Shown: positions 7,992 to 57,760, counted from the stretch's first letter. The stretch is 64,000 bases of DNA from an uncultured Pirellulales bacterium (GCA_964520535.1 CAZFOQ010000002.1:32990-96989), one strand, 5' to 3'. Notes: generated by a model from the sequence alone, not told the origin. Numbers and translations are program-made.

Positions 7992-8012
7992 AAGAACTTT
8001 CCCTTGTATATT

Positions 8013-9442: not shown

Positions 9443-9529
9443 TTACCTAATCACTCCAAAATAATTAATATGATTCCAACTGATAGTTAGACTCAGAGTG
9501 AAAATATTTTTCTTATATATTTATTTCAG

Positions 9530-42357: not shown

Positions 42358-43038
42358 TTAAATTGCCCTGCGTCTGCGCATCCAACCAACAAGTCCCACG
42401 CCGAGACTACCTAACAAAATCGCCCCTGGTGCAGGGATGGCGATGATACTGCCGGATGACAATTGATCTATTGGAGGAACGCCAGATGGCACACCTACCG
42501 AGGATAAAGCGGAAGGTGGCAGCCCTAATGCGTTGACATAATCCTGGATGACAAACTCCCAGACTTCGCCGGGCTGGAAGATACCATCGAAAATCAAACT
42601 CTCCCAGACCAACGGCGTGTTAAATAATCCGACACTGTCAATCTTGAAAGCCAATCCACCGTTAATCCAGCCGTCATCGTTGCTTAACGGAGCTGGTGTA
42701 CCTGCAGGTGCAATGTCAGCGACGTACCAGACCTCCGTCCAGGTGATACCGGTCGCATTTACAATACCCACAACCGGATTTGCAATGTTTGGATTGTCAG
42801 GATTCTGTACACATGGCACGTGCTGAACCTCCGGGATATAGTAGTAGGAATATATCTGCTCATTCTGTGGAAACGGAGCCGCTCCCGGGGGATTCACGCC
42901 CAGCTCATGAACCCATAGCGGAGTCCACAATGGATCCTGAGGACCATTAACGTATGTAACCTTTGTCAGAATCGCCTGCGCCGTGTTACTTAAGCACACC
43001 AGCAAAACAACAATCGAAATTACTGTTAATTTTTTCAT
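42358..43038 (-). CDS. secreted protein with a PEP-CTERM-like exosortase sorting signal
   Basis: 226 aa. N-terminal signal MKKLTVISIVVLLVCLSNTAQA. The C-terminus is ...IAIPAPGAILLGSLGVGLVGWMRRRRAI: a Pro-rich motif, a hydrophobic helix and then an Arg cluster. Confidence 0.55.
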   Translation of the reverse strand: MKKLTVISIVVLLVCLSNTAQAILTKVTYVNGPQDPLWTPLWVHELGVNPPGAAPFPQNEQIYSYYYIPEVQHVPCVQNPDNPNIANPVVGIVNATGITWTEVWYVADIAPAGTPAPLSNDDGWINGGLAFKIDSVGLFNTPLVWESLIFDGIFQPGEVWEFVIQDYVNALGLPPSALSSVGVPSGVPPIDQLSSGSIIAIPAPGAILLGSLGVGLVGWMRRRRAI

Positions 43039-43891
43039 TATCTCACCCTCTTCCTGTAAAAAAATTCCTCTTATTTTTTTCTCCCTGCCTATATCAAAAA
43101 GTATTGCTTTCGATGATTCTGCCTAAAGATGTTTTCTCTTAAAACATTTGCTTTTCAATTTGTGCGACCAGAAGCCGGGATATGCGAAAAAACTTCCAGA
43201 CCGCTCCTCCCTGAATTTATATAGATTAAAGATAATTCTACCTGAAATAGTGATCTAAGTCAAGATGATATTGCCTATTTTTACATTTTTTTAAAGACCA
43301 GAAGCTCACATTTTAACATTTATAAGGATAATAGCAGGCAAAAAGGTGCCTCAGCAGCCCGACACATGCGAAATACGGCAAAAAAAAGCCTATTTTTTGA
43401 GAAATCCGGCACAAAAGGAACGCGTGGAACAGGCAAATCCTTAATTGTTATTTTTTTGCACCCAAAACTTTAAATAATATTGAAAATGTCTGTCCTGCCG
43501 CCGGTTAATCGGGATCGGTATCAAGAGCAATTGCTTCTATCTCGCATATCCTCCTCCATGACCTAGTGTTTTTAAGAGGTGGTTTTGATTTATGTCACAA
43601 GCAGACGGGTTCGCGGGTTTGGGGGATTTCTAATGCATAGTAAAAGAAATCACATAACATTTGGATAGCATTTTATGTAGACAATCAAAGACATGAGTAC
43701 TTTCAGAAAAAATATGAAAAACGAATTGGCCCATAAAAAAAGCAGCAGACTAACTCAAAATCCAGCCGCTGAGCACCTTCTACTCTTGGTAGATGTACAT
43801 CTAAATTATCAGAGAAAAATGCTTCAATCTTTTTTTGTCATCCATTTCTAAAATATCATAGAGAACCAACTTATATTCGTAAATTTACACC

Positions 43892-43957
43892 TTCATTTGG
43901 GTAACGAGCCAGCGAGTTTGTAGGGATTGATCTTTGTGAGCATGTTTGAAGGCGGCG
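43892..43957. repeat. 66-bp imperfect direct repeat (copy 1); a displaced duplicate of the 3' end of the lipoprotein gene at 45924-46541
   Basis: TTCATTTGGGTAACGAGCCAGCGAGTTTGTAGGGATTGATCTTTGTGAGCATGTTTGAAGGCGGCG is about 86 % identical to 45931-45996. On the minus strand it encodes AFKHAHKDQSLQTRWLVTQMKV*, compared with the gene's real C-terminus AFKHAHKDQSPHTRQIVTQMKA*. Confidence 0.65.
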
Positions 43958-43972
43958 AAAATCGCTTTCTTT

Positions 43973-44401
43973 TTATATCCAGCCTTTTAGTTTAGCGAAA
44001 GCCATAGCATTTTTACAAAGCGTCTCCTCTTTTTCAGTGGTTATTTCTTTTTCATATTCGCTCAATACTTTCTGAGCTTTTAAAAAGGCATCTTCAGCTT
44101 CGCTTTGAGAAAATTCCCTATCAAGATGATAATCTGCATCCTCACGGACTTGCTGCAAGTCACGAAGATACTGAGCTGCCTTAACACACTCATTAACATT
44201 AGAGAACTGAAGACATTGAATTACAAATGCGTGTGCTTCTTTACTGGGCTGTTTTGTCTTTTCTAATCCCAGGTGTTTGAAATATTCCCTAAAATATAAA
44301 AGTGCAGCGTAATAAGAGCGCCCAGCAGAAGTACGTAAATGTGCTTGTTCAGTTTGTGTCTTTAATAATTTTGCGGTTTTTAGAAAATCGGCAGGATCCA
44401 T
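43973..44401 (-). CDS. hypothetical protein of the low-GC islet with HEPN-like features (helical; Rx4-6H-like REDADYH)
   Basis: 142 aa. The N-terminus AKLLKTQTEQAHLRTSAGRSYYAALLYFREYFKHLGL has a HEPN-like first-helix pattern. LRDLQQVREDADYH fits Rx4-6H. Third gene of a tightly packed three-gene operon. Confidence 0.45.
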   Translation of the reverse strand: MDPADFLKTAKLLKTQTEQAHLRTSAGRSYYAALLYFREYFKHLGLEKTKQPSKEAHAFVIQCLQFSNVNECVKAAQYLRDLQQVREDADYHLDREFSQSEAEDAFLKAQKVLSEYEKEITTEKEETLCKNAMAFAKLKGWI

Positions 44402-44410
44402 TCAAAAAAT

Positions 44411-44869
44411 TTACACCCGTTTGATATTTATCGTAAAATACTCACCCTGACTCGGAGAAATATTCTTGGCTATCCAGCAAACCATCTTGTCATACTCTTC
44501 AAACGCAATCTGTTGAGCAGATTTGACCTCTACTCTTATAACAACATGTTCAGTTTTTTCATTTTCATCATCCCTGAAGTAATCAAGCTCGGCCGATAAG
44601 CTTAATATATTTGAAAAGACTTTTCTGGCTTCTTTAAGACATTCTGTAAGAATAGAATTTAAATTATGTGAATCACAAAACTCTAAGCATTCCAAACTAA
44701 TCGAATCAACAATCGGAATCTCAGTCTCAACGATATTTATCGTATCTGTTTTTAAATCTGATTCTTTAATATAATCCTTTAACCTTCTAATATTATCACC
44801 AATAACTTGATAACAAGTATCAGACAAGACCGAACCCATAGCAATACTGGATGTTGTAACCACTTTCAT
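44411..44869 (-). CDS. hypothetical protein (152 aa), middle gene of the islet operon
   Basis: ORF with 4-bp overlap to the upstream gene and a 9-bp gap to the downstream gene. No recognisable motif. Low GC. Confidence 0.5.
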   Translation of the reverse strand: MKVVTTSSIAMGSVLSDTCYQVIGDNIRRLKDYIKESDLKTDTINIVETEIPIVDSISLECLEFCDSHNLNSILTECLKEARKVFSNILSLSAELDYFRDDENEKTEHVVIRVEVKSAQQIAFEEYDKMVCWIAKNISPSQGEYFTINIKRV

Positions 44870-45618
44870 TCTCCTCCGAAAGAAACGTTAAGAAAATCAT
44901 ACAATTCTTTATTATTATATTGCCTTCCCTTATGAAGAATACCGAGTATCTTATCTTCATTAAGGTCTTTACTCATATCCCGATTATTAAAATCCACAAT
45001 AACCTGTACGCCATAAGAACGAACTTGATCAATACCTGGAATATTAGGATCTCTCTCAATTTTTTGTGCTGGCTGTATTTGTATCTTTCTATTATAGTCA
45101 TCATCGGGACGATTAATATTCAAAATTATTTCTCCATTTGGAGGTATCTTCATCTTTGTAAAACGTGAGCATACTAATTTAGTACTTTCTGTCTGACCTG
45201 TGTTAAAAATATATTCGTTTACTAATCCAACTCGGCATATTATTTTACCAGCAAAACTTTCTCGAAATATCTTCAGACCATCAAGGCTAACGTCATCTAT
45301 ATCATTTATCTGAATTTCCTCTTGGAACATACTCAATGTTTGAGGAAAAATGAAAACAACACCTCGAGGTGTAATTGCCAAGGTTGCCAAATCCGCCTCA
45401 CCTTTTCCGGGAAAAATGAACTTTTTCCTTATTAGAAACTCGGTAGGAGATTGGACCAAACTTTCAAATAGATTCGGATACTTATCTACTAATTTTTGAC
45501 CGACATCAAACAATTTAACTCGGTCCAACTTGCACTCAATAACAGGACGTATATCTACACCTACTTTTATTGTGTGTTCATCGATTTTTGTTTTTGAAAA
45601 TTTGAAAGGATCCGCCAT
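44866..45618 (-). CDS. hypothetical protein (250 aa), first gene of the islet operon
   Basis: ORF preceded by about 300 bp of AT-rich promoter-like DNA. No recognisable motif. Confidence 0.5.
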   Translation of the reverse strand: MADPFKFSKTKIDEHTIKVGVDIRPVIECKLDRVKLFDVGQKLVDKYPNLFESLVQSPTEFLIRKKFIFPGKGEADLATLAITPRGVVFIFPQTLSMFQEEIQINDIDDVSLDGLKIFRESFAGKIICRVGLVNEYIFNTGQTESTKLVCSRFTKMKIPPNGEIILNINRPDDDYNRKIQIQPAQKIERDPNIPGIDQVRSYGVQVIVDFNNRDMSKDLNEDKILGILHKGRQYNNKELYDFLNVSFGGE

Positions 45619-45923
45619 ATTACAATTTGATACCTAAGAACAGATAATATTCATAAACCATATTCGGTTAATTTGAAGCCCTATCTTAAATTTTATTGTA
45701 CGATTTGTAAATAATAGAAATCTGCTCTTTATGAAAATTATACTATATAATCTTTTGTAAAGTCAAGATAATATTGGTTTCTGCACTATATTACTATCTA
45801 AAATCAATATCTTTGCCACTAATCATCATATTTAACGGAGATATTGACAGTCTTTGAAGCCGGACTCAAGGCTTCTATTCATCATTTTTTTACATTTTCA
45901 AGCAATAAATATCAAAAGTCCGG

Positions 45924-46541
45924 TTATGCTTTCATTTGGGTAACGATCTGGCGAGTGTGTGGGGATTGATCTTTGTGAGCATGTTTAAATGCAACGGCAT
46001 AAGATTCGTTCTGCTGTTTGAACAATTCATTGCCGGTAATAATCTCCTGCAGGGCTTTGGATTTTGTTCGGGCATCTCTCAAGCATCGAACCGCTTGTGT
46101 GCCATAGACTCCGCCGAACAGAGCACAGATTCCGATTCCCAACTCCAGAGCAGCATCGGCCACCTGCCAGCCGTCCGGACGAGCCGCTCCAGACTGCAAC
46201 GCTGTCTCGGCAAGCTGCCAGTTCGATTCGACAAGAATATCTTCGGCGGTTTCGGCCGGCGGGAATTGTTCAGGCAGACCGAAATAAGACACAAATGCCC
46301 TGCTCTGAGTCTTGCTGAGCCGGCTTAAGGCCTGAAGCTTTTCCGAAGAATTTTCCGCCCGAGCGGTCTCAGCGGTAATTGCCGCGGTTTGGTTGTGCAG
46401 CCAGGCATTTTGCTTTTGAGCCTCATCCGGAACAAAACGCAGACTCTCGCAGCCAGCCAACAACAGGCACAAAATCACACAGGCAAAAACTCCGATACGG
46501 CAGCAGGTTTTCACTCTTTTGGAATCGTGTAAATTTTTCAT
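45924..46541 (-). CDS. lipoprotein of unknown function; target gene of the islet insertion
   Basis: Best start is the ATG at 46541 with RBS GGAGAG, giving MKNLHDSKRVKTCCRIGVFACVILCLLLAGCES (lipobox LAGC). The track ORF extends upstream to 46760. Confidence 0.6.
   Translation of the reverse strand: MKNLHDSKRVKTCCRIGVFACVILCLLLAGCESLRFVPDEAQKQNAWLHNQTAAITAETARAENSSEKLQALSRLSKTQSRAFVSYFGLPEQFPPAETAEDILVESNWQLAETALQSGAARPDGWQVADAALELGIGICALFGGVYGTQAVRCLRDARTKSKALQEIITGNELFKQQNESYAVAFKHAHKDQSPHTRQIVTQMKA
45931..45996. repeat. 66-bp imperfect direct repeat (copy 2), forming the actual 3' end of the lipoprotein gene
   Basis: See copy 1 (43892-43957). Identity is about 57/66. Confidence 0.65.
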
Positions 46542-46562
46542 TGTTTCTCTCCTTGTTTGTAG

Positions 46563-46588
46563 TTGACTTGTATGTTTTGGGGTATAAT
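46563..46588 (+). promoter_or_regulatory. consensus-hexamer sigma70-like promoter (TTGACT ... TATAAT) with a short 14-nt spacer, upstream of the radical SAM gene
   Basis: TTGACT at 46563-46568 and TATAAT at 46583-46588. The spacer is suboptimal at 14 nt. Confidence 0.3.
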
Positions 46589-46637
46589 GTTGTCGAACAA
46601 GGTAAAAAGTATTCTGTGGCCGAAAGGACTCTTTCCT

Positions 46638-47729
46638 ATGGGCACAGCAAAAACATTCAGGCCGCGAACCATTATGCTCTCGCAAAAAGTGGCCGAGCTT
46701 CCGGAGGCTCAGCGAATTCTGGATTTGTTTCCATGTGCGGACGTCCGGGTGATTGAGCAACAGCGAAAGCCTTCACTGCCGGATATGTCACCATCTCAAT
46801 CGCTGCTTGCAAGCAAAAGAACTTTGATGATAGGCCGAACCACTTCTTTCGTAGGCCGCTTCGATGGTCAGCTCGGCGAAAATATCCGATGCTGTCCTTA
46901 CTATAAACTGGTTCCGATCTCGAACGGCTGCCCTTACTATTGTACGTATTGTTACCTGGCATATGTTTATCGCAAGCATGCTCCATTCATCAAAATAAAC
47001 ATCAACTACGATGCGATGTTCCGGCAGATCCGCAGGACTACGGACGGTGCCGACGGTAAGGTAAGCTTCAATATGGGAGAGATGCTGGACAGCCTCGCTC
47101 TCGATCACATCACAAATCTGACACCAAAGCTGATCCCGTTCTTTTCCAAATTCTCCAACGCCTATCTCATGCTGCTGACCAAAAGCAGCAATATCAACAA
47201 CCTGCTGCAAGTTGAGCCGAACGGGCAAATCGTCTTGTCCTGGAGTCTGAACAGCCTTCAGGCGATTCGCCAATATGAATTAGGTACTGCCGACCTTGAC
47301 GACCGTATCGAGGCAGCCAGACGTTGCCGGGAGCATGGCTATCGAATCCGATTTCGCATCGACCCGGGCATTCTCCATGACAACTGGCAAGCCGGCTATG
47401 CTGATTTAATCCGGAAGTCACTCACTGCCGTAAAGCCGGAAAATATCACGCTCGGAATGTTGAGATTGCTGCCCGGGCATTTCCAACTGGCCGAAGGCGC
47501 GTATGGCGATCGTGCACATCAGCTTTGCAATCGCAGCTTCGTCAAAGGTGCTTCTGACCGCAAGCTTCGTTATCCGCCAAAAGAACGGGCGGAATTCTAC
47601 AGCTTCCTGATCGATAAAATTCGCAGCTTCGATAAGGATGTCTCTATCAGCCTTTGCAGAGAAACGCCGGAGATTTGGGACATCTTCAAAAACCGCTGCG
47701 ATCCGGCCAAATGCAACTGCGTGATATAG
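46638..47729 (+). CDS. radical SAM protein of the spore-photoproduct-lyase-like (DNA repair photolyase) family
   Basis: NGCPYYCTYCYL (CxxxCxxC). The C-terminal half resembles SPL-family elements (RIRFRIDP, MLRLLPGH). The start at 46638 (MGTAKTF...) is chosen because the track start at 46563 lies inside the promoter hexamers; the start is uncertain. Confidence 0.65.
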   Translation: MGTAKTFRPRTIMLSQKVAELPEAQRILDLFPCADVRVIEQQRKPSLPDMSPSQSLLASKRTLMIGRTTSFVGRFDGQLGENIRCCPYYKLVPISNGCPYYCTYCYLAYVYRKHAPFIKININYDAMFRQIRRTTDGADGKVSFNMGEMLDSLALDHITNLTPKLIPFFSKFSNAYLMLLTKSSNINNLLQVEPNGQIVLSWSLNSLQAIRQYELGTADLDDRIEAARRCREHGYRIRFRIDPGILHDNWQAGYADLIRKSLTAVKPENITLGMLRLLPGHFQLAEGAYGDRAHQLCNRSFVKGASDRKLRYPPKERAEFYSFLIDKIRSFDKDVSISLCRETPEIWDIFKNRCDPAKCNCVI

Positions 47730-47742
47730 CAACCAATGATAA

Positions 47743-48048
47743 TTAAAAAGTCTCATCGGCAATGTCAGTTTCAGAGACGTGTTTTTCAATTGCACGCAGG
47801 CGGTATTCGTATGAGATGCTCTTTCCCCAGAGTAATTCGAGTTTCTGCTCAAAATCCTTTTGTCCGGCCAGCAGCATACTGACATCCCGCTGGAGCAGGT
47901 CGAGCTGCATCTGCAAATTAAACCAGCTTCCGACAATCAATGAAGCTAAAAGGAACAGTTGAACAATCACAGAGAGATTAATCTGCCGATTCAGCCGCCA
48001 TCGATTTGAATTTTCTCTTACCATTATTGACCTCATGTGCTCGAGCAA
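47743..48048 (-). CDS. small membrane/coiled-coil protein (101 aa), uncertain
   Basis: ORF in an otherwise empty 330-bp gap. It has one TM segment (LSVIVQLFLLASLIVGSWF) and then a coiled-coil. Confidence 0.3.
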   Translation of the reverse strand: MLEHMRSIMVRENSNRWRLNRQINLSVIVQLFLLASLIVGSWFNLQMQLDLLQRDVSMLLAGQKDFEQKLELLWGKSISYEYRLRAIEKHVSETDIADETF

Positions 48049-48061
48049 ATTGCATTCTCAT

Positions 48062-48433
48062 TTATGCCGGTGTATAGAAAACATTTTTGCCGCCTATGCG
48101 AAACATGACGACATATGTGTCCGCCGCCAGGGTCCCCTGCTGATCGAAAGGCTCGGCCAGATTAAATGCCTGAATTTGCTGGCCGATTTCGACCGGCTCT
48201 GTGCCGGCATCGCTGATCACAATAACGATGACATTATAGAGATTATAGGAGGAATTACTTTTAACCTTGACCGCCCAGGCAATTGTTCCGGCACCGGGTG
48301 AAGTCACCATCGTTGTATCATGCGTCCTTTGTGATGGCGCTCGGGAAAGCTGCTCCAGCACCTGCCGTGCGTTCGTGTTGGATGTTGGCTCGCTCATGAT
48401 TTTCTCATCCGGATAATTTTCAAATTCGTACAC
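48062..48433 (-). CDS. hypothetical protein (123 aa), last gene of the phage-like module
   Basis: ORF in the co-directional cluster, overlapping the upstream gene by about 40 bp. No recognisable motif. Confidence 0.45.
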   Translation of the reverse strand: MYEFENYPDEKIMSEPTSNTNARQVLEQLSRAPSQRTHDTTMVTSPGAGTIAWAVKVKSNSSYNLYNVIVIVISDAGTEPVEIGQQIQAFNLAEPFDQQGTLAADTYVVMFRIGGKNVFYTPA

Positions 48434-50226
48434 TGCTTTTGAAAATCCATGTGCACACGCTCGATTCGGCTCCGGCTGCGGTTGTCCCTGCGGCAGGAAA
48501 GCAGGTCCCTGCTCTCGGGAGAAGCGCTCACTCTATCACCGAGACGATAATCAAAGGACAAATACGGCGTTTGAATCTCCGCTGTCTCGATGATCTCCGG
48601 CGACGTTTCCGCCGCCTTGCGGACAAACTCATAGAGGGCCTCGGAATCATCCACTTCATTCGGGACACCGAGCATCGGATCCGTACTATTGGCGAAGATG
48701 CTCTGGCCGCAAACTTTGCAGTATTTGAATTGTTTCGGCAGAGTCAGGATATGCTCAACAACTGGAACCACAGAATGAACCGGACCATCGGCCACAATGG
48801 CACTTAATCTCTTATCGCTGATGACCGACGCCGTGATTCGGAACCTCAGGCCTCCCTTGAGCAATGCCTCCCAGAGTTTTGTGCCGAGCCGCTCGCCGCT
48901 GAGCCAGACGCCGCATTCATCAGTTAGGGTATTGAAGGCATCGAGATACTGCCACCAGGTCAGGCCGTTATCATACGAGACCTGGAGATAATAGCCCAAC
49001 GATCTGCCCTGACTGTCGGTGGTCAGTGCCGGCCAAAAACGTTTGCGGCAATGGATGTAGTTTTCGCTCTGAAAAATCTTTGAAAAATCTAATGCGTCAC
49101 CCCGATAGTAAGGAGGGCCGCTATAATCGCCCGCCTCGTTCAAAGTCCATTTGCGATAGACATCCCGAACCTGATAGAAATCCGGATTCGTGGACGGCGA
49201 GAAATAGTCATAGCCGTTACTTTCGAGACTGCTGTCCCAGGCCATCTTTAATTCGAAGGTCCCTTCGAAGATTTTGTAATCGCCCAAACCGATATACTTG
49301 TGTGTCACCGGCCAGAAATTCTTACTACTGCTCAAACCGGCAATATTTGTCTTAGAGAGACTAAGCTGCTCGCCTGCTTTCTGACAATCCAATTCGACGA
49401 TTCTTCCCGTATCGGATTTATAAAATACAATCGCCTGAGCCGGTCCGGTCGGATTCATCCGGGGAACAAACTTAAAATCAAGACCAATTCTCTCGCAGCA
49501 GCGATGAAGAGCCTCCAAAAGACTCAATCCGGTGACATCGAGATCACGCACAATCTGGTTATCCGTCAACGCCTGCAAGCGGTTAAATTCCGGCATGTAC
49601 AGACAACCTGTCGGCAGATATTCGCTTAGAAGATAATCCATCGCCTGGGCATACGTCCAGAGCCTGCCTTGTGACACTTTCGGGCAGAAAACCGTATATT
49701 TTTTGCCGTTCATCTGCACCGGCGATTCGCTCGCATTGGGATTGCTGTCGGGATTAAAGATGGTATCAAAACCTTCCAAAAACACATTTGTTCCATCGGC
49801 ATTTGCAATTCGCTGGCCGAAGACTGTCACCCGCTTGAGGTTCGCACTAAAATCTCTGGCGATAATCTCGACAGTTTCATCGTCAGCTTGCAGTTGAGTT
49901 TTAATACTCTCGATATGTCCTTCAAAGACAGGATAGCTAAAAACCGCCGCTCCGGGAGCTACACCATTGTATAGGGCCCGAATGCTGATGGATTTGCCCA
50001 TAGGAAAAAGTGTTTCAATATCTTCGATAGCATTGAAACTGCCGTTCTCATACGCAGCGGAATTATATTTTAACCTAGCTCGGCTAAATTCCGGCCAGCC
50101 GTCACGAACAATCTCGAGTGGCTCCAGAGCCGGGCACAATATACCATCAACAAAAATACAGACAGAAGCAGCCGGCAGTGCCAGTGATGTTTGCTCTGAT
50201 TGAAAAAAGTCGATTCGATTGGACAT
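48394..50226 (-). CDS. large hypothetical structural protein (610 aa), phage tail/baseplate-like
   Basis: Long ORF. No NTP-binding motif (no GxxxxGK[ST]), so it is not a terminase. Lies downstream of the LamG fibre-like gene. Confidence 0.5.
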   Translation of the reverse strand: MSNRIDFFQSEQTSLALPAASVCIFVDGILCPALEPLEIVRDGWPEFSRARLKYNSAAYENGSFNAIEDIETLFPMGKSISIRALYNGVAPGAAVFSYPVFEGHIESIKTQLQADDETVEIIARDFSANLKRVTVFGQRIANADGTNVFLEGFDTIFNPDSNPNASESPVQMNGKKYTVFCPKVSQGRLWTYAQAMDYLLSEYLPTGCLYMPEFNRLQALTDNQIVRDLDVTGLSLLEALHRCCERIGLDFKFVPRMNPTGPAQAIVFYKSDTGRIVELDCQKAGEQLSLSKTNIAGLSSSKNFWPVTHKYIGLGDYKIFEGTFELKMAWDSSLESNGYDYFSPSTNPDFYQVRDVYRKWTLNEAGDYSGPPYYRGDALDFSKIFQSENYIHCRKRFWPALTTDSQGRSLGYYLQVSYDNGLTWWQYLDAFNTLTDECGVWLSGERLGTKLWEALLKGGLRFRITASVISDKRLSAIVADGPVHSVVPVVEHILTLPKQFKYCKVCGQSIFANSTDPMLGVPNEVDDSEALYEFVRKAAETSPEIIETAEIQTPYLSFDYRLGDRVSASPESRDLLSCRRDNRSRSRIERVHMDFQKQCTNLKIIRMRKS

Positions 50227-50270
50227 ATTTCGCTTCTCGTACTTATCCCTGATTTCACCGGGCGACTATA

Positions 50271-51782
50271 TCAAATACTTTTGACCTTTATAATATCGAT
50301 TGGATTGGGATTTGCCGAATCGAGTTGAATCCTTAACTGTGACAAAGATTCGTTCTCGATCCCATCAGGACTTTCAGCTCGTACGGCAAAAAGATATTGA
50401 TCGGCTTCGAGTGCATGACTTTCATAGATGTAAAATTTTCGTCCCCGATATTCAATTGTAGCCAGCGGATTTTCGTAGTCGATTTGACCTGAGGCATTAT
50501 CGTAATAAATCCTGAAACAAACCGGCTGTGATTTCTGCTCGAGCTGGCAATAATACAAGATAATCCTTATCTTATTTCCTGCGACCCGCTCCACTGTTGA
50601 TACAAAAACTTTATTGGGATGCGGCCCCTCAAGACCGCCGTCTGATGTTATCGTGATTTTCACCGCAGCGGCTATAGTCCGCTCCTGACAGCCACAATTG
50701 TTGAATCGGCGAACGATATAAAAACAGGTCGAGTCAGCATCATGTGGGATATAGGTCGGCGGATTGATATCATCGGCATCCGGCTCGGAGACAACCAGGA
50801 TATTATCAAAGTCGATTTGTACCATCGAGGGGCCACGATAAAGTGTCGTACAGCCGTTAACACGAATCCAGAACCAACCCAGACTCAAAACCGTGCCCAA
50901 CTTAAAGGCATTGGCGGTCATTCCATTAAATAATGCATCGTAAATCCAAAACCTTTCTAACTCCGGCAATCTGCAAATTGATGTCAACTGACCCTTTACT
51001 GTAGATTGTGCACTGATTGCACCAGCGAGGTAAACTACAGTTACAGGGACATGCATTGAGACCGACGCAACATCATCGAACATTGCAAACGGTTCCCGAT
51101 AGAGCCAGGCAATTTCCCGGGCAGACAGGACACGATTATAAAGCATTACATGGTCGATAATACCCGACATATAAGCGCCGGGAGTTGAATCCGCAGTCGC
51201 CCCTATATGCGTTCGGTCCACAGGCGGAACGGCACAAGCAGTTGCATTTGTACCTTCATTTCCCCCATCAATATATGCTCTTCGATCACTGTTAGAAACA
51301 AATACAGCTACACACTGATGCCAAATACCGACTGAGAAAGCCTTCGTCGCAACAGCAGTGCCACCGCTCCAGTCGGTATCACGTATGAAAGCAGCAACCG
51401 GATTCCCGGACCACGTTCCCAGCATACCGAGAAGAATGTTACCCGCTTCTGCTCCTGAATAACCAATATCTAAAATCACATTGTCGGTATTTGTGTTATC
51501 ACTTTTAGCCCAACTGACAATTGAAATGGGAAGTTGAGTTAATATTGCAGAACTATATTGCAGATATTCACCGCTCCCACTATTAAACAATAAACCGCCT
51601 CCATATTTACTATTCGACCACTCCGGAGAACCGTTGCCGATATCGAAATTATTCTTCATTCCGCTCGAATCAAGAAATATACTGCCGGACCTTTCATTGA
51701 AAAGCCAGCAACCGACTAATCCCCGAGCAAGCGGATGGCTTCGGTTTATTTGTATTGCTCTTAGAGGTTTAAGAAGTGACAT
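50271..51782 (-). CDS. LamG/concanavalin-A-like lectin domain protein (phage tail-fibre/receptor-binding-like) with a C-terminal IYYDNASGQIDYENPL domain
   Basis: 503 aa. LamG_3-like segment LLFNSGSGEYLQYS...VSWAKSDN...GIWHQCVAVFVSNSDRRAYIDGG...MSGIIDHVMLYNRVLSAREIAWLY. The C-terminus shares the IY[YF]DNxxGxIDYENPL motif with the 53973-54749 protein. Confidence 0.6.
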   Translation of the reverse strand: MSLLKPLRAIQINRSHPLARGLVGCWLFNERSGSIFLDSSGMKNNFDIGNGSPEWSNSKYGGGLLFNSGSGEYLQYSSAILTQLPISIVSWAKSDNTNTDNVILDIGYSGAEAGNILLGMLGTWSGNPVAAFIRDTDWSGGTAVATKAFSVGIWHQCVAVFVSNSDRRAYIDGGNEGTNATACAVPPVDRTHIGATADSTPGAYMSGIIDHVMLYNRVLSAREIAWLYREPFAMFDDVASVSMHVPVTVVYLAGAISAQSTVKGQLTSICRLPELERFWIYDALFNGMTANAFKLGTVLSLGWFWIRVNGCTTLYRGPSMVQIDFDNILVVSEPDADDINPPTYIPHDADSTCFYIVRRFNNCGCQERTIAAAVKITITSDGGLEGPHPNKVFVSTVERVAGNKIRIILYYCQLEQKSQPVCFRIYYDNASGQIDYENPLATIEYRGRKFYIYESHALEADQYLFAVRAESPDGIENESLSQLRIQLDSANPNPIDIIKVKSI

Positions 51783-51809
51783 TTATTGTTTTTCCGTAAA
51801 CACAACTGT

Positions 51810-52202
51810 TTAAGCAGTGATATAATTCCATGCCTGAACATAAGCTCTGACATTGTGACTATCTGTTGAACCTGTCTGTTGCACGCCGATCCTGAAATGA
51901 GCCAGATCCCTGACGATAAAGCTCAACTGTTGTGGGTCCGTACTTTTATCTCCCTGCATCTCCCAGATAGGCGTGTCATCATAATTGGAGCCATCGAGGC
52001 AGCCATAGAGCTTGATCTTGACCTCATCCGTCGGGGATGCATCATAGTCAATTTCCACGACCAGATGTACTCCCTCATAGCCGTTTGTCTCCAAATCAAC
52101 ATCCGAAGAAAAGACTTCAGTCGTTCCGGATAAAGTTACCCAACCATCTCCGGTTCCGATGATCTGACTTTGAGAAGCCCAGTTCTTACTTATAGTTGCC
52201 AT
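51810..52202 (-). CDS. hypothetical protein (130 aa), phage-like module
   Basis: ORF in the cluster. Confidence 0.45.
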   Translation of the reverse strand: MATISKNWASQSQIIGTGDGWVTLSGTTEVFSSDVDLETNGYEGVHLVVEIDYDASPTDEVKIKLYGCLDGSNYDDTPIWEMQGDKSTDPQQLSFIVRDLAHFRIGVQQTGSTDSHNVRAYVQAWNYITA

Positions 52203-52347
52203 TACTCGCTCCTTATTTGTTTTTGTATCTTATTAATCCAGGCTCAGGACCAAATCACCTGCCGCAAATTTTACGATGTCTCCACTGCCGATGGATTTTG
52301 ACGGACTTAGTTCGCCGCAAGCCAGCATATTTCCACCTGCGACGGCA

Positions 52348-52623
52348 TCAAACAAAATAAGTCATTGTCCCCCAATTGCCGGTCGCCATTGGAAAGATTA
52401 TCTCATTGGCATTATCTAATGAACCGCTTAAAGCGGCATTCCAATCACCGGCGGAAGTTTGTACTCGTGCATATGCATTTCCGCTCGGCTCGGCCAGAGA
52501 CAAACCATCATCGGCCGGATCTCCTATGGATAATCCCACGTAAATCGTCGGAGGCGTTAATGTGGCTTTGCTAAAAAGATAGTCTATGATTCTATCTTCC
52601 CAATAATCTGAAAAACTTCCCAT
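52348..52623 (-). CDS. hypothetical protein (91 aa), phage-like module
   Basis: ORF in the cluster. Confidence 0.35.
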   Translation of the reverse strand: MGSFSDYWEDRIIDYLFSKATLTPPTIYVGLSIGDPADDGLSLAEPSGNAYARVQTSAGDWNAALSGSLDNANEIIFPMATGNWGTMTYFV

Positions 52624-52651
52624 GTCCCTATCCCCTCGTTATTGCCGTTAT

Positions 52652-53137
52652 TTATTCCGGCGTTTTTGTGATACTCGATTGACTTTCGGATGGAGTATGA
52701 GTCACCAGCACCGTTTGCCCATCATCATCGTAATACTGGATTTGTCCGCTTAATTTGTTCTGAACGGCCTTATTGGCAAGCAATTTCTCGGCGGTGATTT
52801 TTCCTGAGCCCGACCAGACAATCTCGCTACTTTCCACGAATGTATCGCCATCTGCGGGATTAGCGCCGGCCTGCAGGAATATCTGGATGGAATATCTCCC
52901 TGACGAAATATTGCTATCGAAGTCTCCTACATATCTGCACCCGTCCTTGTCCGTCAGGCTGATATCATAATCGTCGGCATCTCGGCTGTCCGTCCCCCAA
53001 TCTTCGAAAACCTGCCCCGCCACGTACCAAACTTGTCCTGCGGAGTTTCGGACAATGGAATAAAGGGTATTACCGGATACGTAATCTGCTTGTATTTCGT
53101 TCGGCATTTGAGAACTCCAGTGAAATTCCTCAATCAA
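52652..53137 (-). CDS. hypothetical protein (161 aa), phage-like module
   Basis: ORF in the cluster. Confidence 0.45.
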   Translation of the reverse strand: MIEEFHWSSQMPNEIQADYVSGNTLYSIVRNSAGQVWYVAGQVFEDWGTDSRDADDYDISLTDKDGCRYVGDFDSNISSGRYSIQIFLQAGANPADGDTFVESSEIVWSGSGKITAEKLLANKAVQNKLSGQIQYYDDDGQTVLVTHTPSESQSSITKTPE

Positions 53138-53165
53138 TTGAGGGGCTATATACTTTTAACTTATG

Positions 53166-53954
53166 TTATGTTTCCTCAGTCCAGGTCCCGTTCTTGGCGA
53201 TAGTCACCCAGTCACCATTAGCATCGGCTATCAGGCTCAGGCTTTCACCTATTGCATTCGCGGATTTATATTTGCCTGCCGTCTGGCCACTATCGTCCCG
53301 AATCGTCGCCGAGCCGGGATCGATGTGTAATTCCTGTGCCGCCTGCACGGCAAAATGAAAGATGGTTCCAGCCTGTGCCGAAGCCGGTAGCGTTAGTGTC
53401 ACTGTTGTAGTTGCCCCCAGGTTGGTGTGAACGCTGCCGGATTCGGACTCTGTGAGTGTGTCATCGGTGGTGTGCACCTCGATGGTCTTTGTCAGGCCGC
53501 CAGCACCATATGGCATCAAAACATTATGACCGGCCCGGCAATCAGTGATCGAATCGATATCACCGCCGGAGGTGGACACAATCGCCAAACGGATATGCGG
53601 CGTTACCGCCATATCGGGAAAATCATCGTATTCGTTAGTGACAAGACTACCGGCAGAATCCAGATAGATGTAAATATCCTGCTTATCATCCGCCAAAGTA
53701 TTGCCCGAAGAACCTCCGAAACTGATAAGCTCCGTCCCCAGCCAGAACTTTCCCGCCTTGACACCGATGTCCAGACCGCCTTCGTCATAGACTCTTAGGT
53801 CGTTTGACCGGCAAGTCGCCAGTAACAGCCGATATAACAGCTTTCTGAAATGCAGGTAATACGGCGCTGTCCCGGTCGGGATATATTCTACGCCGGTCTC
53901 GCTTTCGGCTTGCAGGTTCAGCAGTTCATTATCCGACGGATATGTTTCAGCCAT
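53166..53954 (-). CDS. hypothetical protein (262 aa), phage-like module
   Basis: ORF in the cluster. Confidence 0.5.
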   Translation of the reverse strand: MAETYPSDNELLNLQAESETGVEYIPTGTAPYYLHFRKLLYRLLLATCRSNDLRVYDEGGLDIGVKAGKFWLGTELISFGGSSGNTLADDKQDIYIYLDSAGSLVTNEYDDFPDMAVTPHIRLAIVSTSGGDIDSITDCRAGHNVLMPYGAGGLTKTIEVHTTDDTLTESESGSVHTNLGATTTVTLTLPASAQAGTIFHFAVQAAQELHIDPGSATIRDDSGQTAGKYKSANAIGESLSLIADANGDWVTIAKNGTWTEET

Positions 53955-53972
53955 AACGTCCTCCCTATGCTT

Positions 53973-54749
53973 CTATAGAATGTTCAAAACCAGTTCATTT
54001 GTCTGTTTGTCAAACGATGAAATCTCCAATCCCTCGGCCGGCCTTGCAGCAGGCGTCACTGTAATCGGCCCGGTTTCAGTCACGTTGCTGGAGTTGCCTT
54101 TTTCATCAACGACTATGACGGCAAACTTATAAACACCGGCATCCAGCGGCGGGCTGGTCCATTGGATCGTATCCGCATCGAGTCCGAACAGGCCATATCC
54201 GAAGCTTCCCTTGCCGAATCCAATCGCGGCGGCACCATCATAACCAAAGTCACTGATCCCGAACTGGCTCATTCCAAAGCCGGCCTTGTCCTGCCAGGCA
54301 GGCCAGAGACGAATGGGCGGATCTGTGAGTGGATTTTCGTAATCGATTTCGCCGGTGCAATTATCGAAGTATATTTGTGCCGTTGCTTCAGGTGGCAAAT
54401 CATGGCTTCTCAGCATAGATATTTTCACTCGTCCACTGTCACCATGTGAATCGTCAAGCTCGTCACTGAAATCGATGTCCGCATCCTGAGCCTGAACGGC
54501 AAAAACTTCAATCCTCACCGCACAAGTCAAAAAACTCGGTACCGGGACAATCATTTGCCTTTGCTCGGTATCGAGCGTTGTGCTGGCAAATTTTCCGTTT
54601 ACATAAATTTGATAAAACACCTCCTGTAAAACCGACCGCCATCGAACCAAAGCAACTCGCGGAGCTGGAACGGGACACCCATCCGCCCAGATACCGTCGG
54701 GCAATACAAAAGCTCGAACCGAACTGATGCCGTTACTAATAAGTGACAT
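53973..54749 (-). CDS. hypothetical structural protein (258 aa) sharing the IYFDNCTGEIDYENPL motif with the LamG protein
   Basis: ORF in the cluster. Motif IYFDNCTGEIDYENPLTDPP versus IYYDNASGQIDYENPLATIE. Gly/Phe-rich segment GFGKGSFGYGLFGLD. Confidence 0.5.
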   Translation of the reverse strand: MSLISNGISSVRAFVLPDGIWADGCPVPAPRVALVRWRSVLQEVFYQIYVNGKFASTTLDTEQRQMIVPVPSFLTCAVRIEVFAVQAQDADIDFSDELDDSHGDSGRVKISMLRSHDLPPEATAQIYFDNCTGEIDYENPLTDPPIRLWPAWQDKAGFGMSQFGISDFGYDGAAAIGFGKGSFGYGLFGLDADTIQWTSPPLDAGVYKFAVIVVDEKGNSSNVTETGPITVTPAARPAEGLEISSFDKQTNELVLNIL

Positions 54750-54760
54750 AATAGTGCTCT

Positions 54761-55129
54761 TTAGGTCAATTGTGTGTAAGTGATTTCATAGTCGACGACG
54801 ATGAAAGCCCCGTCCAGCCGCTCATCCGTCACCTGAAAAAAATCCATTCGAAGATGATCAAATTCTCTTCCATCCTCGGTGACAAGAGTATGCGTTTTCC
54901 CATCCATATAATTCGATATGGCACTGATTCTATCGTCTACTTTTACCCTGCTTTTGGCTCGCAAAGTTCCTGTTTGTTTGACTTTTCTGCCGCGTTGGCC
55001 AAGATCAATGGTCAATACGCCGTCCAGGCCCGGCACAGCTTTTTCTATCGAATCCCGGCGAAAACTCCCGGCCTCGAACACCAACTGCTGCTGGTCAAAT
55101 ACTGCTTGTCCGTCTATTGTTGTACTCAT
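54761..55129 (-). CDS. hypothetical protein (122 aa), phage-like module
   Basis: ORF in the cluster. Confidence 0.45.
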   Translation of the reverse strand: MSTTIDGQAVFDQQQLVFEAGSFRRDSIEKAVPGLDGVLTIDLGQRGRKVKQTGTLRAKSRVKVDDRISAISNYMDGKTHTLVTEDGREFDHLRMDFFQVTDERLDGAFIVVDYEITYTQLT

Positions 55130-55141
55130 TTGGTTTCGCCT

Positions 55142-55798
55142 TTAATCCCGCATTAATCTGCCGGATGCCCCGATCTGAGTGACATCAACCACGCCGTCGG
55201 TACCAAGGTCGAGACTGAGTCGCGTTCGTTCTTTTGCCCTTGTAAAGAGCCTCTGATAGTGCAGGGACTTTTTCCAGAAATTCTCATCATCAGCTTTACC
55301 TGCCAGCATGGCATACACGCACGAAAGTACGGCAAAAACTGATGCCTGCCTCAGCACACTCGTATCCAGAACATCTTCGATGTCATAATCGGACGACGGA
55401 TTTCCCGGACGGATACCGAAATATTCAGTTATTTGAAATCCAACCTCATTGGCCTGAGGCGCCAAGGTACTGACACGGTATGAGACATTTGTTGCCGCCG
55501 GTGGTGCGATGGCATTGGCTTGAGAATCCGACCTGATTATCGAAACACTCAGTTGCGTCGCCGAGTCCACTGAAACAATCTCGTAAGCTCCGTCCAGCGT
55601 CCCATCTTCTGACTGAAGATAGATCACGCCGCCCGCCGAGACCTGAGCAGAGATAAAATCTTCGCCGGATGCGGTGAAGGTTGTTCCGCTGAGAGCCCCC
55701 CCTGTCCCCTCAGTCAGGACTTGCCATGGAAGATGAAGCTGCCCGAAAAGCATTGGCTCATATATCAAAATATCCGCATCGTTCGAAAAGCTAACCAT
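55142..55798 (-). CDS. hypothetical protein (218 aa), phage-like module (head-tail connector or tail tubular candidate)
   Basis: ORF immediately downstream of the capsid-like gene. Confidence 0.45.
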   Translation of the reverse strand: MVSFSNDADILIYEPMLFGQLHLPWQVLTEGTGGALSGTTFTASGEDFISAQVSAGGVIYLQSEDGTLDGAYEIVSVDSATQLSVSIIRSDSQANAIAPPAATNVSYRVSTLAPQANEVGFQITEYFGIRPGNPSSDYDIEDVLDTSVLRQASVFAVLSCVYAMLAGKADDENFWKKSLHYQRLFTRAKERTRLSLDLGTDGVVDVTQIGASGRLMRD

Positions 55799-55826
55799 TT
55801 TTGTTTGTCCTTGTTATTTTCTTCTT

Positions 55827-55874
55827 GTTATTCTGAGCGGAACGCTCTTTACATTGTCATTCTGAGCGGAACGC
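55827..55874. repeat. two 19-bp direct repeats (GTYATTCTGAGCGGAACGC) in the spacer downstream of the capsid-like gene
   Basis: 55827-55845 gttattctgagcggaacgc and 55856-55874 gtcattctgagcggaacgc. They share the core TGTCATYCTGAGC with the tandem repeat at the window end. Confidence 0.5.
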
Positions 55875-55976
55875 AGTGGAGTCGAAGAATCTGGCCTGGT
55901 GGTTTAATATCATTCTCGAAATTAACTTTGCAATCATCGGCCAGATCCTTCGTTATCGCTCAGGATGACAAGCCCT

Positions 55977-57131
55977 TTAACTTGTGCTCAAGTCGCGAAT
56001 CAGGCCGTGGGCCGCTTCATTTTTCAGCTCGACGGTATATTCGCCGATTAGTTCACCGCACTCATAATCTCCACTGCTGGCCAGAGGTTTGAAATGGAAA
56101 CTCCGCCCGGCCAACGGCAGAACGTTGATGCGGGATGAATCCAGCAACAGCACCGCATCGGCTGGCAGCCATCGGGTCGTAATAATCCGGCACACACCGA
56201 AGTCACTCTCATAAATGCTGATCATATCGGTGAAAGTCGTATCGTTGGCGCCGAAGCTCCTGCTGTTGGCGGAAAAGGCGTTGATCTTTCGTTTCTGAAA
56301 ACCGCCGACCACAATCAGGTCCACATTACCACTGCTGTTGTTCCAGATTTGTCGAAGTACATAATTAATTTTGTCTTCATCAAGATCTGTGCCGGATGGA
56401 AAGCCGCTGTCACCGGTGTGGAAGACATTCATCGAGAAGTGCTGAATAATTCCCTTCATCGACCTTCGTACCGAGCCGCTGCCCTCGGGATTACTGGCCG
56501 GCTGGCCGCCGTTGATAACTGTATTTTCCAAATCGCGAATCATCTCTCGCAACCGTTCCTGCTTTTGAAAATCCAGCTCGTCGGCCAATCCCAACTGACT
56601 TGCCGCCATATCTGTGCCGCTAACCTCGACAGTCGCAGTAAATATCTGTGTGTAGTTGCCGCACCGGCTGCGGTTGGTGAACCGAGCACTGGGTTTGTCC
56701 GCCCCTTCGAGAGCCGCGTTTCCGAGAATATTGATGACCTGGTCATCGGCCAGGTCCTCGGCGGTTGTACCGGCATAGCCGCGGACAACCGTCAATGTAT
56801 TGCTGTTGATTGCCGTGACGAGCATTAATTCCTCACTACCAGCGATCTGAATCTGGTCGCCAATGCGAAATCGGCTTCCGTTATCGACAACAAAATCCGT
56901 GTCAGTGCTCGGATCAGTATACGTGCTGTCATTGACCGCGTCTTTGTTCGGCAGAAGTTCATCTTCGAGCCACTCGTGATGCGTGCTTCGGGCCTCCCGC
57001 ATCGGGTCACCCAGAGCATCCAGCAAAGGAGTCTCATAAGGCGTAATAAGCCCGATGATATCCGATACATCCTCAGCCAGCTCCGGCAGAGTCGTCCCTG
57101 CTGTATATGTCGCTTTTCCTGTAAATGCCAT
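55977..57131 (-). CDS. phage major-capsid-protein-like protein (384 aa)
   Basis: Its size, its position after a coiled-coil scaffold-like gene and a portal-like gene, and the 178-bp spacer with repeats downstream (typical of highly expressed capsid genes) support the call. No definitive motif. Confidence 0.4.
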   Translation of the reverse strand: MAFTGKATYTAGTTLPELAEDVSDIIGLITPYETPLLDALGDPMREARSTHHEWLEDELLPNKDAVNDSTYTDPSTDTDFVVDNGSRFRIGDQIQIAGSEELMLVTAINSNTLTVVRGYAGTTAEDLADDQVINILGNAALEGADKPSARFTNRSRCGNYTQIFTATVEVSGTDMAASQLGLADELDFQKQERLREMIRDLENTVINGGQPASNPEGSGSVRRSMKGIIQHFSMNVFHTGDSGFPSGTDLDEDKINYVLRQIWNNSSGNVDLIVVGGFQKRKINAFSANSRSFGANDTTFTDMISIYESDFGVCRIITTRWLPADAVLLLDSSRINVLPLAGRSFHFKPLASSGDYECGELIGEYTVELKNEAAHGLIRDLSTS

Positions 57132-57199
57132 TTTCTTTTCTCCTGTTTAAACCTCCCAGTAACACCGGGGGCTAATTATTACTTTTCATCGTTACTTTT

Positions 57200-57715: not shown

Positions 57716-57760
57716 TAGACTGTTACCTCCAGAGCCTCAATCAATCAGGGGCTCAATATC

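Follow-up and report, generated by a model that had tools for sequence, protein, structure and literature searches.

This work deals with a small islet of three genes, here called A, B and C, which lies in a 64,000-nucleotide (nt) stretch of DNA from an uncultured Pirellulales bacterium (GCA_964520535.1, CAZFOQ010000002.1:32990-96989) and is bounded by two copies of the 3' end of a lipoprotein gene. The whole stretch is called the window, and positions are counted from its first letter; it is chromosomal DNA, assigned here to the Phycisphaerae/Sedimentisphaerales (Planctomycetota), as indicated by the names on homologues and related loci and by its host genes for flagella, sugar metabolism and purine synthesis. 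An earlier examination made from the sequence alone (the sequence-only reading) had singled out the islet as a candidate novel abortive-infection or toxin system. The analysis described here points to a horizontally acquired three-gene toxin-antitoxin-type cassette, placed in a recurrent gene-end hotspot and composed of a HEPN toxin (C), an antitoxin (B) and an accessory protein (A), an interpretation in which we have moderate confidence. The features of the locus, with proteins measured in amino acids (aa), are the following.

43039..43407, minus strand: conserved upstream region of a PEP-CTERM gene, where the hotspot ends on the right; alignable to the corresponding intergenic DNA in L008 and L184, both with an empty site
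43408..43884, minus strand: native downstream sequence of the lipoprotein gene, now displaced together with the distal repeat copy; homologous to the flanks of relatives
43885..43953, minus strand: distal repeat copy, the ancestral lipoprotein gene end (3'), displaced and no longer functional
43973..44401, minus strand: gene C, open reading frame (ORF) of 142 aa; HEPN-T (PF05168-type), predicted toxin
44411..44869, minus strand: gene B, ORF of 152 aa; antitoxin-like
44866..45618, minus strand: gene A, ORF of 250 aa; first, constant gene of the cassette family
45737..45766, minus strand: promoter-like site TTGACT-18-TATAAT, known from its 11/12 consensus matches only; 120 nt upstream of gene A
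45774..45923, minus strand: AT-rich spacer, from the lipoprotein stop codon to where cassette homology begins
45924..45992, minus strand: proximal repeat copy, the functional last 22 codons and stop codon of the lipoprotein gene
45924..46541, minus strand: lipoprotein gene, 205 aa, lipobox LLAGC; insertion target and last gene of a head-tail cluster

The three genes are tightly coupled, with A and B overlapping by 4 nt and B and C separated by 9 nt. A repeat search gave two copies of 69 nt, 86 % identical and spaced 2039 nt, with a 25-nt identical core for which none of 100 shuffles gave a match. A dispersed repeat family, which the sequence-only reading had named as a possible objection, could be ruled out, since this core is present just twice in the 64-kb window. 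On the minus strand the likeness between the copies ends at the stop codon. In frame with the lipoprotein gene, the proximal copy encodes AFKHAHKDQSPHTRQIVTQMKA before its stop and fits the C-terminal consensus of the family (SPxTRQIVxQMKA), while the displaced copy encodes AFKHAHKDQSLQTRWLVTQMKV and a stop. The most likely start of the lipoprotein is the ATG at 46541, giving 205 aa, rather than that of a 278-aa ORF beginning with TTG.

Most of this agrees with what had been described before. The sizes, overlap and gap of the three minus-strand genes coincide with the ORFs, and both repeat copies translate into the two alternative lipoprotein C-termini as originally written. The repeat itself, previously given as 66 bp at 43892-43957 and 45931-45996 with about 86 % identity, is real; the stop codon forms part of it, which explains why those coordinates were off by about 4-7 nt. 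The low G+C content (GC) of the islet was also reproduced: it is 0.336 between the repeats against about 0.50 in the neighbours, with third-position GC (GC3) of 0.26-0.30 in genes A, B and C against 0.51-0.60 in neighbouring genes.

GC is 0.27 in the intergenic region 45619-45923, which holds the AT-rich spacer (45774-45923); the spacer resembles none of the related loci compared. Homology to the cassette of the related locus L047 begins at 45773, and the promoter-like site falls at the left edge of that homology block. A 17-nt match (94 %) between 43257-43273 and 45760-45776 spans the TTGACT -35 box of two promoter-like sites, one upstream of the PEP-CTERM gene and one upstream of gene A, and may be a common promoter element or a coincidence. 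As for termination, the only consensus match for an intrinsic terminator after gene C is on the plus strand and thus not relevant to these genes. Beyond the distal copy the low GC runs on for about 850 nt of non-coding DNA (43039-43884, GC 0.36), which is native intergenic sequence outside the insert; it gave no Rfam match, and no tRNA was found as a target.

That the islet is an insertion can be read from related genomes, whose loci are numbered here with the prefix L. In two related species, represented by L008-L011 (lipoprotein 71 % identical) and L184/L185 (73 %), the three genes are missing; 383-596 nt past the lipoprotein stop comes the orthologue of the PEP-CTERM gene found at 42358-43038 of the window, and it is with this intergenic region that window segment 43407-43039 aligns. 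The adjoining segment, 43884-43408, is homologous to the sequence right after the lipoprotein stop in L100/L101 and L014/L015, and it also matches L034, there about 780 nt downstream of the lipoprotein gene. The distal peptide shows signs of decay, having TRW where TRQ, TRR or similar is found in all 120 homologues listed, and it ends in QMKV and a stop, as in the closest relative, L183 (lipoprotein 82 % identical), whose contig stops 220 nt past the lipoprotein gene, before any cargo could be read. Both copies carry the lineage signature FKHAHKDQS, and the nearest of 82 gene ends to the distal copy is that of the window's own gene (87 % vs 79 % at most); distal copies of different loci are 60-71 % identical to each other, no closer than to resident genes, in a comparison over 63 nt only. 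From the empty sites, the native flank, the signs of decay and the lineage signature it follows that the native order was lipoprotein gene, flank and PEP-CTERM gene, and that about 2.0 kb was inserted 66-69 nt before the stop codon, bringing a replacement end.

The insertion proposed in the sequence-only reading is therefore borne out by its orthologous loci: relatives with the same flanking genes have an empty site and an uninterrupted lipoprotein gene, the native gene end is recognisable in the distal copy with its flank, and the three genes are not, as it had allowed, conserved core neighbours. The genomes with an empty site are as close to the window as the carriers, to judge from the 610-aa protein of the head-tail cluster (78 % identity in L008 and 77 % in L012, vs 74 % in the carrier L047). 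In the source population, nine of nine lipoprotein contigs were 100 % identical to the window, with no empty-site variant among them. On the other side of the site, the upstream region of the PEP-CTERM gene (window 43039-43407) occurs three times in L012 (3624-3963, 5444-5607 and 6525-6862), each copy preceding a PEP-CTERM paralogue, so that the hotspot is bordered downstream by what is itself an expanding array of a few genes.

The same architecture was found repeatedly when the last 75-90 nt of each lipoprotein gene were compared with its own downstream DNA. Second gene-end copies were detected in L047 (69 nt, 80 %), L043 (66-75 nt, about 81-85 %), L014/L015 (50 nt, 76 %), L114 (69 nt or more) and L123 (66 nt), with weaker ones in L055, L066, L094, L102 and L125. 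Between the two copies, L047, L055, L102 and L123 have this same A-B-HEPN cassette and L043 a diverged form whose first gene is another one, and in L114 there are A, a small protein and PemK. Unrelated cargo, followed in each case by a decayed gene-end copy, consists of a DUF3800 gene and a gene for a 163-aa protein on the opposite strand in L014/L015 (5361-6983), a retropepsin-like aspartic protease in L094 (10594-11910), and three unknown genes of 258, 195 and 290 aa in L066 (10570-13176). Also at the hotspot, L060 (10645-11933) and L076 (8301-9619) hold a 176-aa unknown first gene, a 123-aa middle protein and PemK. In the loci with second copies the GC of the cargo is below that of the flanks. 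The distal copy is undetectable in other carriers (L103, L105, L111, L113 and others), and in L100/L101 the cassette is placed after the native flank, without a repeat. Of the species-level loci, 55 extend at least 2.5 kb downstream, and 6 of these have toxin-type cargo recognised by profiles. Other Sedimentisphaerales genomes show this arrangement too, some with this cassette and some with unrelated genes in its place, which makes the site a hotspot of repeated insertion, located where a conserved head-tail cluster of phage origin ends.

Two loci deserve separate mention. In L125 (4041-5989), a second gene-end copy (5643-5692) lies between the lipoprotein gene and gene A; some 1.6 kb of other DNA precedes the A cassette there, an order suggestive of two tandem insertions. 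A perfect 55-nt gene-end copy in L016 (5060-5246) was rejected as a probable assembly artefact, given the run of N next to it and a host-like cargo of normal GC.

Gene A is the key to the wider family. An A profile retrieved 80 metagenomic loci, which include truncated contigs and repeat samples of one population, so that the counts that follow are approximate; these loci were scanned with profiles for the lipoprotein, A, the B domain, C, PemK and the PemK-type middle protein, and were then read and checked against Pfam. About 14 of the 80 have A, a B-domain protein and HEPN, and about 40 have A, a middle protein of 82-108 aa and PemK/MazF. In other A loci, A is accompanied by a 126-142-aa middle protein and a second type of PemK, by a middle protein of about 80 aa and a third MazF type, or by a 101-aa middle protein and ParE. 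In the toxin slot of these sister cassettes each superfamily scores above its Pfam cut-off (PemK 61.5 bits, ParE 46 bits, HEPN 25.9 bits). The lipoprotein gene stands directly upstream of A in some 20 loci, of both the HEPN and the PemK type, and the remaining loci are at unrelated chromosomal sites, with no flanking repeats where checked. Just downstream of an A-PemK cassette at one such unrelated site, L096 has a 66-nt direct repeat (88 %; 9440-9505 and 10153-10218) around a small gene of the THIVI_2564 family. The first gene is also replaceable, by a 221-226-aa protein in L043 and L074 (in the latter at 7588-8253) and by the 176-aa protein in L060 (10645-11184) and L076; homology between the former and A was ruled out, with an hhalign probability of 0.3.

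The modules are exchanged within this family. L123 and L125 have different toxin modules (HEPN and PemK type, respectively) but A proteins with 89 % identity, and the middle proteins themselves appear composite by sequence comparison. Those of L107 (HEPN type) and L113 (PemK type) have their first 53 residues in common, with 49 % identity, and the initial 48 residues of B of the window also match the L113 middle protein (E = 8e-6). In L123, the middle protein (200 aa) amounts to a complete PemK-type middle protein (85 % over 87 aa to that of L124) followed by a B domain. The middle proteins are thus best described as modular, with an N-terminal module which is common to HEPN- and PemK-type cassettes and which, by these alignments, goes with A and not with the toxin. 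A is the constant component of an undescribed three-gene family in which the toxin-antitoxin part (HEPN, MazF or ParE) is interchangeable. In addition, the arrangement agrees with that of type II systems, a small coupled pair with an antitoxin-like gene upstream of a toxin from a known superfamily. We define the islet, from its gene content, as a toxin-antitoxin-type module because of the toxin slot, the upstream antitoxin-like gene and the tight coupling, and its organisation as three-component because A is constant and the antitoxin segment follows A rather than the toxin.

How the cassette reached the site can be approached through its junctions. One codon (about F185) marks the start of the distal copy in the window and in L047, L043, L123, L102 and L055, 17-28 nt past the HEPN stop. 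Since the spacer between them is partly homologous among these carriers, the junction looks inherited with the HEPN-type cassette. L114, of the PemK type, has a duplication of at least 136 nt (480-615 vs 2305-2440), with the first 75 nt or so nearly identical and the last 60 nt or so about 75 % identical. Differing in both length and identity pattern from the HEPN-type junction, it is an independent event, and its mosaic suggests a recent crossover or gene conversion. The three ORFs of the islet are not recombinase-like, as the sequence-only reading had stated in reporting no integrase there; no integrase was found either among the ORFs tested around the islet or 10 mid-sized ORFs tested from 1-34 kb, a scan that leaves aside most of the window's 86 ORFs, nor in about 20 related hotspot loci examined. 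The most likely mechanism, as we infer it, is of the Campbell type: a circular cassette that bears its own copy of the gene end would recombine with the resident gene through a single crossover, the enzymes being provided in trans. This would explain the inherited junction, the likeness of the distal copy to the resident gene, the identity mosaic and the easy loss of the cassette.

Among the alternatives, the one that survives best takes the repeats as true attL/attR sites produced by a site-specific integrase encoded elsewhere, the integrase-less islet being mobilised in trans. The architecture is classical for such a process, with the 3' end of the target duplicated, the gene restored and a 25-nt identical block in the repeat; the left boundary falls at one codon in the six loci mentioned, and several unrelated cargos have entered one site. 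Nevertheless, that common boundary accompanies a homologous spacer after the HEPN gene and so looks inherited, not recreated each time, the L114 duplication is different and longer, none of the approximately 20 hotspot loci examined holds an integrase, and the species share no identical core. We regard this explanation as unlikely. Of the attL/attR footprint claimed initially, the gene-end duplication and the empty site stand; the att nature of the repeats is unproven, because the HEPN-type junction looks inherited, the L114 duplication is longer and cassettes off the lipoprotein site lack repeats.

It could also be argued that the cassette is old and vertical, with a single entry in an ancestor, repeated losses as the repeats recombined with each other, and no mobility at present. 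Between the window and L047, the cassettes are 78 % identical at the DNA level, barely above the lipoprotein gene (74 %); one junction is common to all HEPN-type cassettes, and direct repeats offer an easy route to precise loss. The protein comparison of the same two loci is uneven, with 85 % identity for A, 84 % for C and only 53 % for B, against 69-77 % for flanking proteins, and the pairwise identities of A and the lipoprotein are only loosely correlated (r = 0.54). A single ancient entry is difficult to reconcile with GC3 values of 0.26-0.30, unameliorated in a host of 0.5-0.6, or with a neutral 69-nt remnant, which would not stay 80-87 % identical without refreshing recombination when lipoprotein genes are 70-80 % identical. 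Moreover, L118 and L142 are discordant, their lipoproteins being 88 % identical and their A proteins only 60 %, and toxin modules have been swapped between near-identical A lineages. Purely vertical descent therefore appears decidedly unlikely, and horizontal acquisition is retained as the preferred reading.

Regarding the presumed toxin, gene C matches the Pfam HEPN family (PF05168) over profile positions 11-115 of 117 with E = 3.8e-4 and 21.0 bits, the cut-off being 22, and its orthologue in L123 scores above the cut-off, with 25.9 bits. It also matches phrog_5176 (E = 1.2e-14) and PADLOC HEPN_IX (E = 1.9e-4), with a weak match to a PADLOC cyclase (E = 3e-3). Its orthologues form 68 clusters, all of about 142 aa and several annotated as PF05168 or UPF0332. 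The HEPN call of the sequence-only reading for this last gene is supported by these HEPN matches and annotations, and its assignment of REDADYH as an Rx4-6H-like motif is not. In 29 orthologues the His in question (H92) varies between H, R, N, K, S, C and D, while R23, T24, S25, R28, S29, Y31, R38, E39, D90 and Y91 are invariant and H21, H57 and R86 nearly so, which makes R-x3-D-Y (R86, D90, Y91) the conserved motif. No match to the PDB was obtained by sequence; with the C profile, the best entries were 9xbd/9xbc, "HEPN domain-containing protein", at a non-significant E = 0.12. Both carry the same R-x3-D-Y motif, with F for Y in one of the two. A HEPN-T subtype has been described in which D replaces the conserved H, a conserved H is found elsewhere, and activity is predicted (PMC3710099). 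By its alignment C belongs to this "D replaces H" variant of the PF05168 HEPN-T family. An RNase activity is then plausible as a prediction, and not canonical, because the His of Rx4-6H is not conserved and the R-x3-D-Y variant is present instead.

A non-catalytic HEPN protein, with the three genes forming a regulatory or RNA-binding module and no toxin system, would account for the missing His, for a Pfam score under the cut-off and for the lack of an MNT partner recognisable by sequence. The conservation of R86, D90, Y91, H21 and H57, as in the HEPN-T subtype predicted to be active (PMC3710099), speaks against it, and so does the fact that bona fide PemK/MazF or ParE toxins fill the position of HEPN in sister cassettes, which is the reason for considering this position a toxin slot. 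We find such a module very unlikely and continue with C as a predicted toxin.

The middle gene, B, gave no known domain. An MNT antitoxin was ruled out at the sequence level, with no NTP_transf_2 match and no conserved G[GS] or DxD motif. The AlphaFold2 (AF2) model has a predicted local distance difference test score (pLDDT) of about 58 for residues 1-50 and above 90 for residues 55-152, and thus predicts a disordered N-terminal module followed by a folded, novel C-terminal domain, the latter found in 82 cluster representatives.

For A, about 100 clusters of homologues were retrieved, with identities of 34-100 %; most have no source name, and the named ones are mostly Planctomycetota or Sedimentisphaerales. 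On this evidence A appears to be a novel protein family, confined to this clade among the homologues retrieved. It has no family match in Pfam, NCBIfam, PADLOC or PHROGs, and was absent from the phage, plasmid and IMG/VR collections searched. The AF2 model is confident (pLDDT 91, predicted template modelling score 0.87) and consists of two β-α-β(n)-α repeats. Searches of the PDB by sequence, profile and Foldseek gave nothing significant, the best structural matches being to guanidino kinases, McsB, glutamate-cysteine ligase and glutamine synthetase, a resemblance of catalytic domains. Many invariant charged residues (K18, D22, R24, K65, E74, R129, D209 and N211) occupy alternate strand positions, as might be expected of a surface for binding or catalysis. 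Two segments, NRPDDDYNR and VDFNNRD, may recall the phosphagen kinase motifs NEEDHLR and DISNxxRLG. A may be either a chaperone or sensor, or an enzyme that has the guanidino-kinase/glutamine-synthetase fold and acts upon the antitoxin. The profile searches thus agree with the earlier statement that the first two genes lack recognisable domains, and they gave none of the three a confident housekeeping function.

The proposal that A is itself the mobility enzyme, a new recombinase, with B and C as an ordinary addiction pair that stabilises a minimal mobile element, is hardly tenable: it draws on A being the sole constant gene of the cassette family, on cassettes at several unrelated chromosomal sites and exchanged between hosts, and on the absence of any other recombinase gene in the cassette, but A is unlike tyrosine, serine, DDE and HUH recombinases and most resembles kinases, a ligase and a synthetase, flanking repeats are missing from A-cassettes located elsewhere than at the lipoprotein gene, the same hotspot also takes cargo devoid of A (DUF3800, Asp protease, 176-aa first gene), some of it with the gene-end repeat, and the antitoxin N-terminal module tracking A, not the toxin, would be left unexplained.

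Taking these results together, the toxin-antitoxin-type cassette could operate as follows. C would be a HEPN-T toxin, a predicted RNase acting through the R-x3-D-Y variant site and an alternative His. B would be its antitoxin, in which the folded C-terminal domain, specific to HEPN-type cassettes, would keep C inactive, and the disordered N-terminal module is held in common with the antitoxins of MazF-type sister cassettes. A, as a new accessory protein, would act on this N-terminal module and so control the persistence of the antitoxin. Upon a trigger, for example phage infection or loss of the cassette, C would be freed and growth arrested, the outcome being abortive infection or addiction. 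As regards its arrival, the incoming DNA would have cut the lipoprotein gene 66-69 nt before the stop codon and given it a new end, so that the original one persists as the distal repeat. The candidate put forward by the sequence-only reading is hence best read as a three-component toxin-antitoxin or abortive-infection module, a role that is predicted from gene order, family membership and the comparison of genomes.

Several points weigh against this interpretation. C falls just under the Pfam cut-off (21 vs 22 bits) and its canonical catalytic His is not conserved, while toxicity and neutralisation are deduced from family membership. The absence of A from the phage, plasmid and viral collections searched leaves it with no direct link to phage defence. 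In PADLOC-DB 2.0, a check that the sequence-only reading had suggested, A, B and the lipoprotein gave no match, only C gave weak ones, and no described system was recognised at the locus. Finally, the spacer at 45774-45923 is not conserved among carriers, and the Campbell model predicts it to be cassette-borne.

The target gene belongs to a conserved context. Upstream of the lipoprotein gene and in the same minus strand lies the head-tail cluster (window 45924-59293), which includes these two genes.

57761-59293, minus strand: portal gene, the start of the head-tail cluster
55977-57131, minus strand: SU10-type major capsid gene of the head-tail cluster

Other members are a scaffold-like gene, a Gp80-like gene, a Laminin_G tail protein and proteins of 610, 123 and about 93 aa. 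The cluster is bordered by a PfkB kinase gene of ordinary host type, and no terminase or integrase adjoins it. In every related locus whose gene content was read its synteny is kept, with protein identities of about 65-78 %, and the same host genes follow it (methyltransferase, PCC, Band_7 and others). The lipoprotein family has 1839 database matches at about 70 % identity and is present in at least 124 species-level genomes of Sedimentisphaerales/Phycisphaerae, with one weak match only in IMG/VR. From its gene content and conservation the cluster looks like a domesticated phage particle cluster, a candidate gene-transfer-agent-like element.

Two observations concern the genes next to the target. 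A spore-photoproduct-lyase-like radical SAM gene (46563-47729, plus strand) lies between the 93-aa gene and the lipoprotein gene in the window; it is present also in L012, L043, L047, L066, L100 and L183 and absent in L008, L014 and L184, and is a second variable point within the conserved cluster. In addition, the 93-101-aa protein (47743-48048, minus strand) has, by its sequence, one hydrophobic helix and then a coiled-coil-like region, and the lipoprotein has its lipobox and a hydrophobic stretch near residue 140, so that the two could be a lysis-type pair, spanin- or holin-like, of the phage-derived cluster.

The main interest of the locus is the A-centred three-gene family with interchangeable toxins, together with the recurrent hotspot, and in this the sequence-only reading pointed in the right direction. 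Multi-component toxin-antitoxin systems, in which a third protein senses or gates the release of the toxin, are emerging as phage-defence devices, and few families of third components are known, SecB-like chaperones among them; A would be a further, unannotated one. For its study, this family offers a confident predicted structure, a combinatorial pattern over three toxin superfamilies and some 80 natural variants, and the site is a clearly delimited hotspot of insertion, at the terminus of an apparent domesticated phage particle cluster, in a phylum that has received little study. A bolder version of the model, speculative and in our judgement unlikely, makes A an ATP-dependent protein-modifying enzyme with the glutamine-synthetase/guanidino-kinase fold, like McsB or PafA, which tag proteins for degradation; A would covalently mark the disordered N-terminal module of the antitoxin and so decide the release of the HEPN, MazF or ParE toxin. 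This version also has the cassette spread with no integrase of its own, through a copy of the conserved gene end that serves as homing arm, into the terminal gene of a domesticated cluster resembling a gene-transfer agent. If true, an antitoxin-marking enzyme would mean a new control principle for toxin-antitoxin and abortive-infection systems.

Among known systems, the closest by toxin are the type VII HEPN-MNT pairs (HepT/MntA; PMC7641770, PMC11586414), from which the islet differs in that B has no NTP_transf_2 match, G[GS] or DxD, a third gene is present, and the motif of C is R-x3-D-Y and not Rx4-6H. By organisation, the likeness is to toxin-antitoxin-chaperone (TAC) systems, in which the antitoxin (HigA, MqsA or HicB) carries a ChAD extension that is recognised by a SecB-like chaperone (PMC5105189), and which phage proteins can trigger via the chaperone (bioRxiv 10.1101/2024.02.24.581848). 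In both there are three genes, one accessory family is combined with several unrelated toxin-antitoxin pairs, and an extra disordered antitoxin segment goes with the accessory protein, here putatively dependent on A. However, A is not SecB-like by sequence or predicted fold and is the first gene of its operon, the common antitoxin segment is N-terminal whereas ChAD is C-terminal, and the toxins here are HEPN, MazF and ParE. The resemblance would therefore be an analogy of organisation and not membership, and a chaperone function of A is suggested only by that analogy.

As to its position, the islet shares with integrative islands at gene 3' ends the repeats duplicating the last 22 codons, the intact target gene, the empty site and the foreign composition; it differs from them in being just 2 kb long, in having no integrase or excisionase among its three ORFs, and in that its junction appears inherited with the cassette and the duplication in a sister cassette has another length. 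Defence hotspots free of mobility genes, located between conserved genes, exist in P2/P4 prophages and in the E. coli core genome. Here, unlike in those, the insertion cuts the flanking gene and duplicates its end, and the host cluster looks domesticated, is conserved across more than 100 species and is not a mobile prophage. What the hotspot described here has in common with them is a fixed position by conserved phage-derived genes, a variable small cargo and an enrichment in toxin-like genes.

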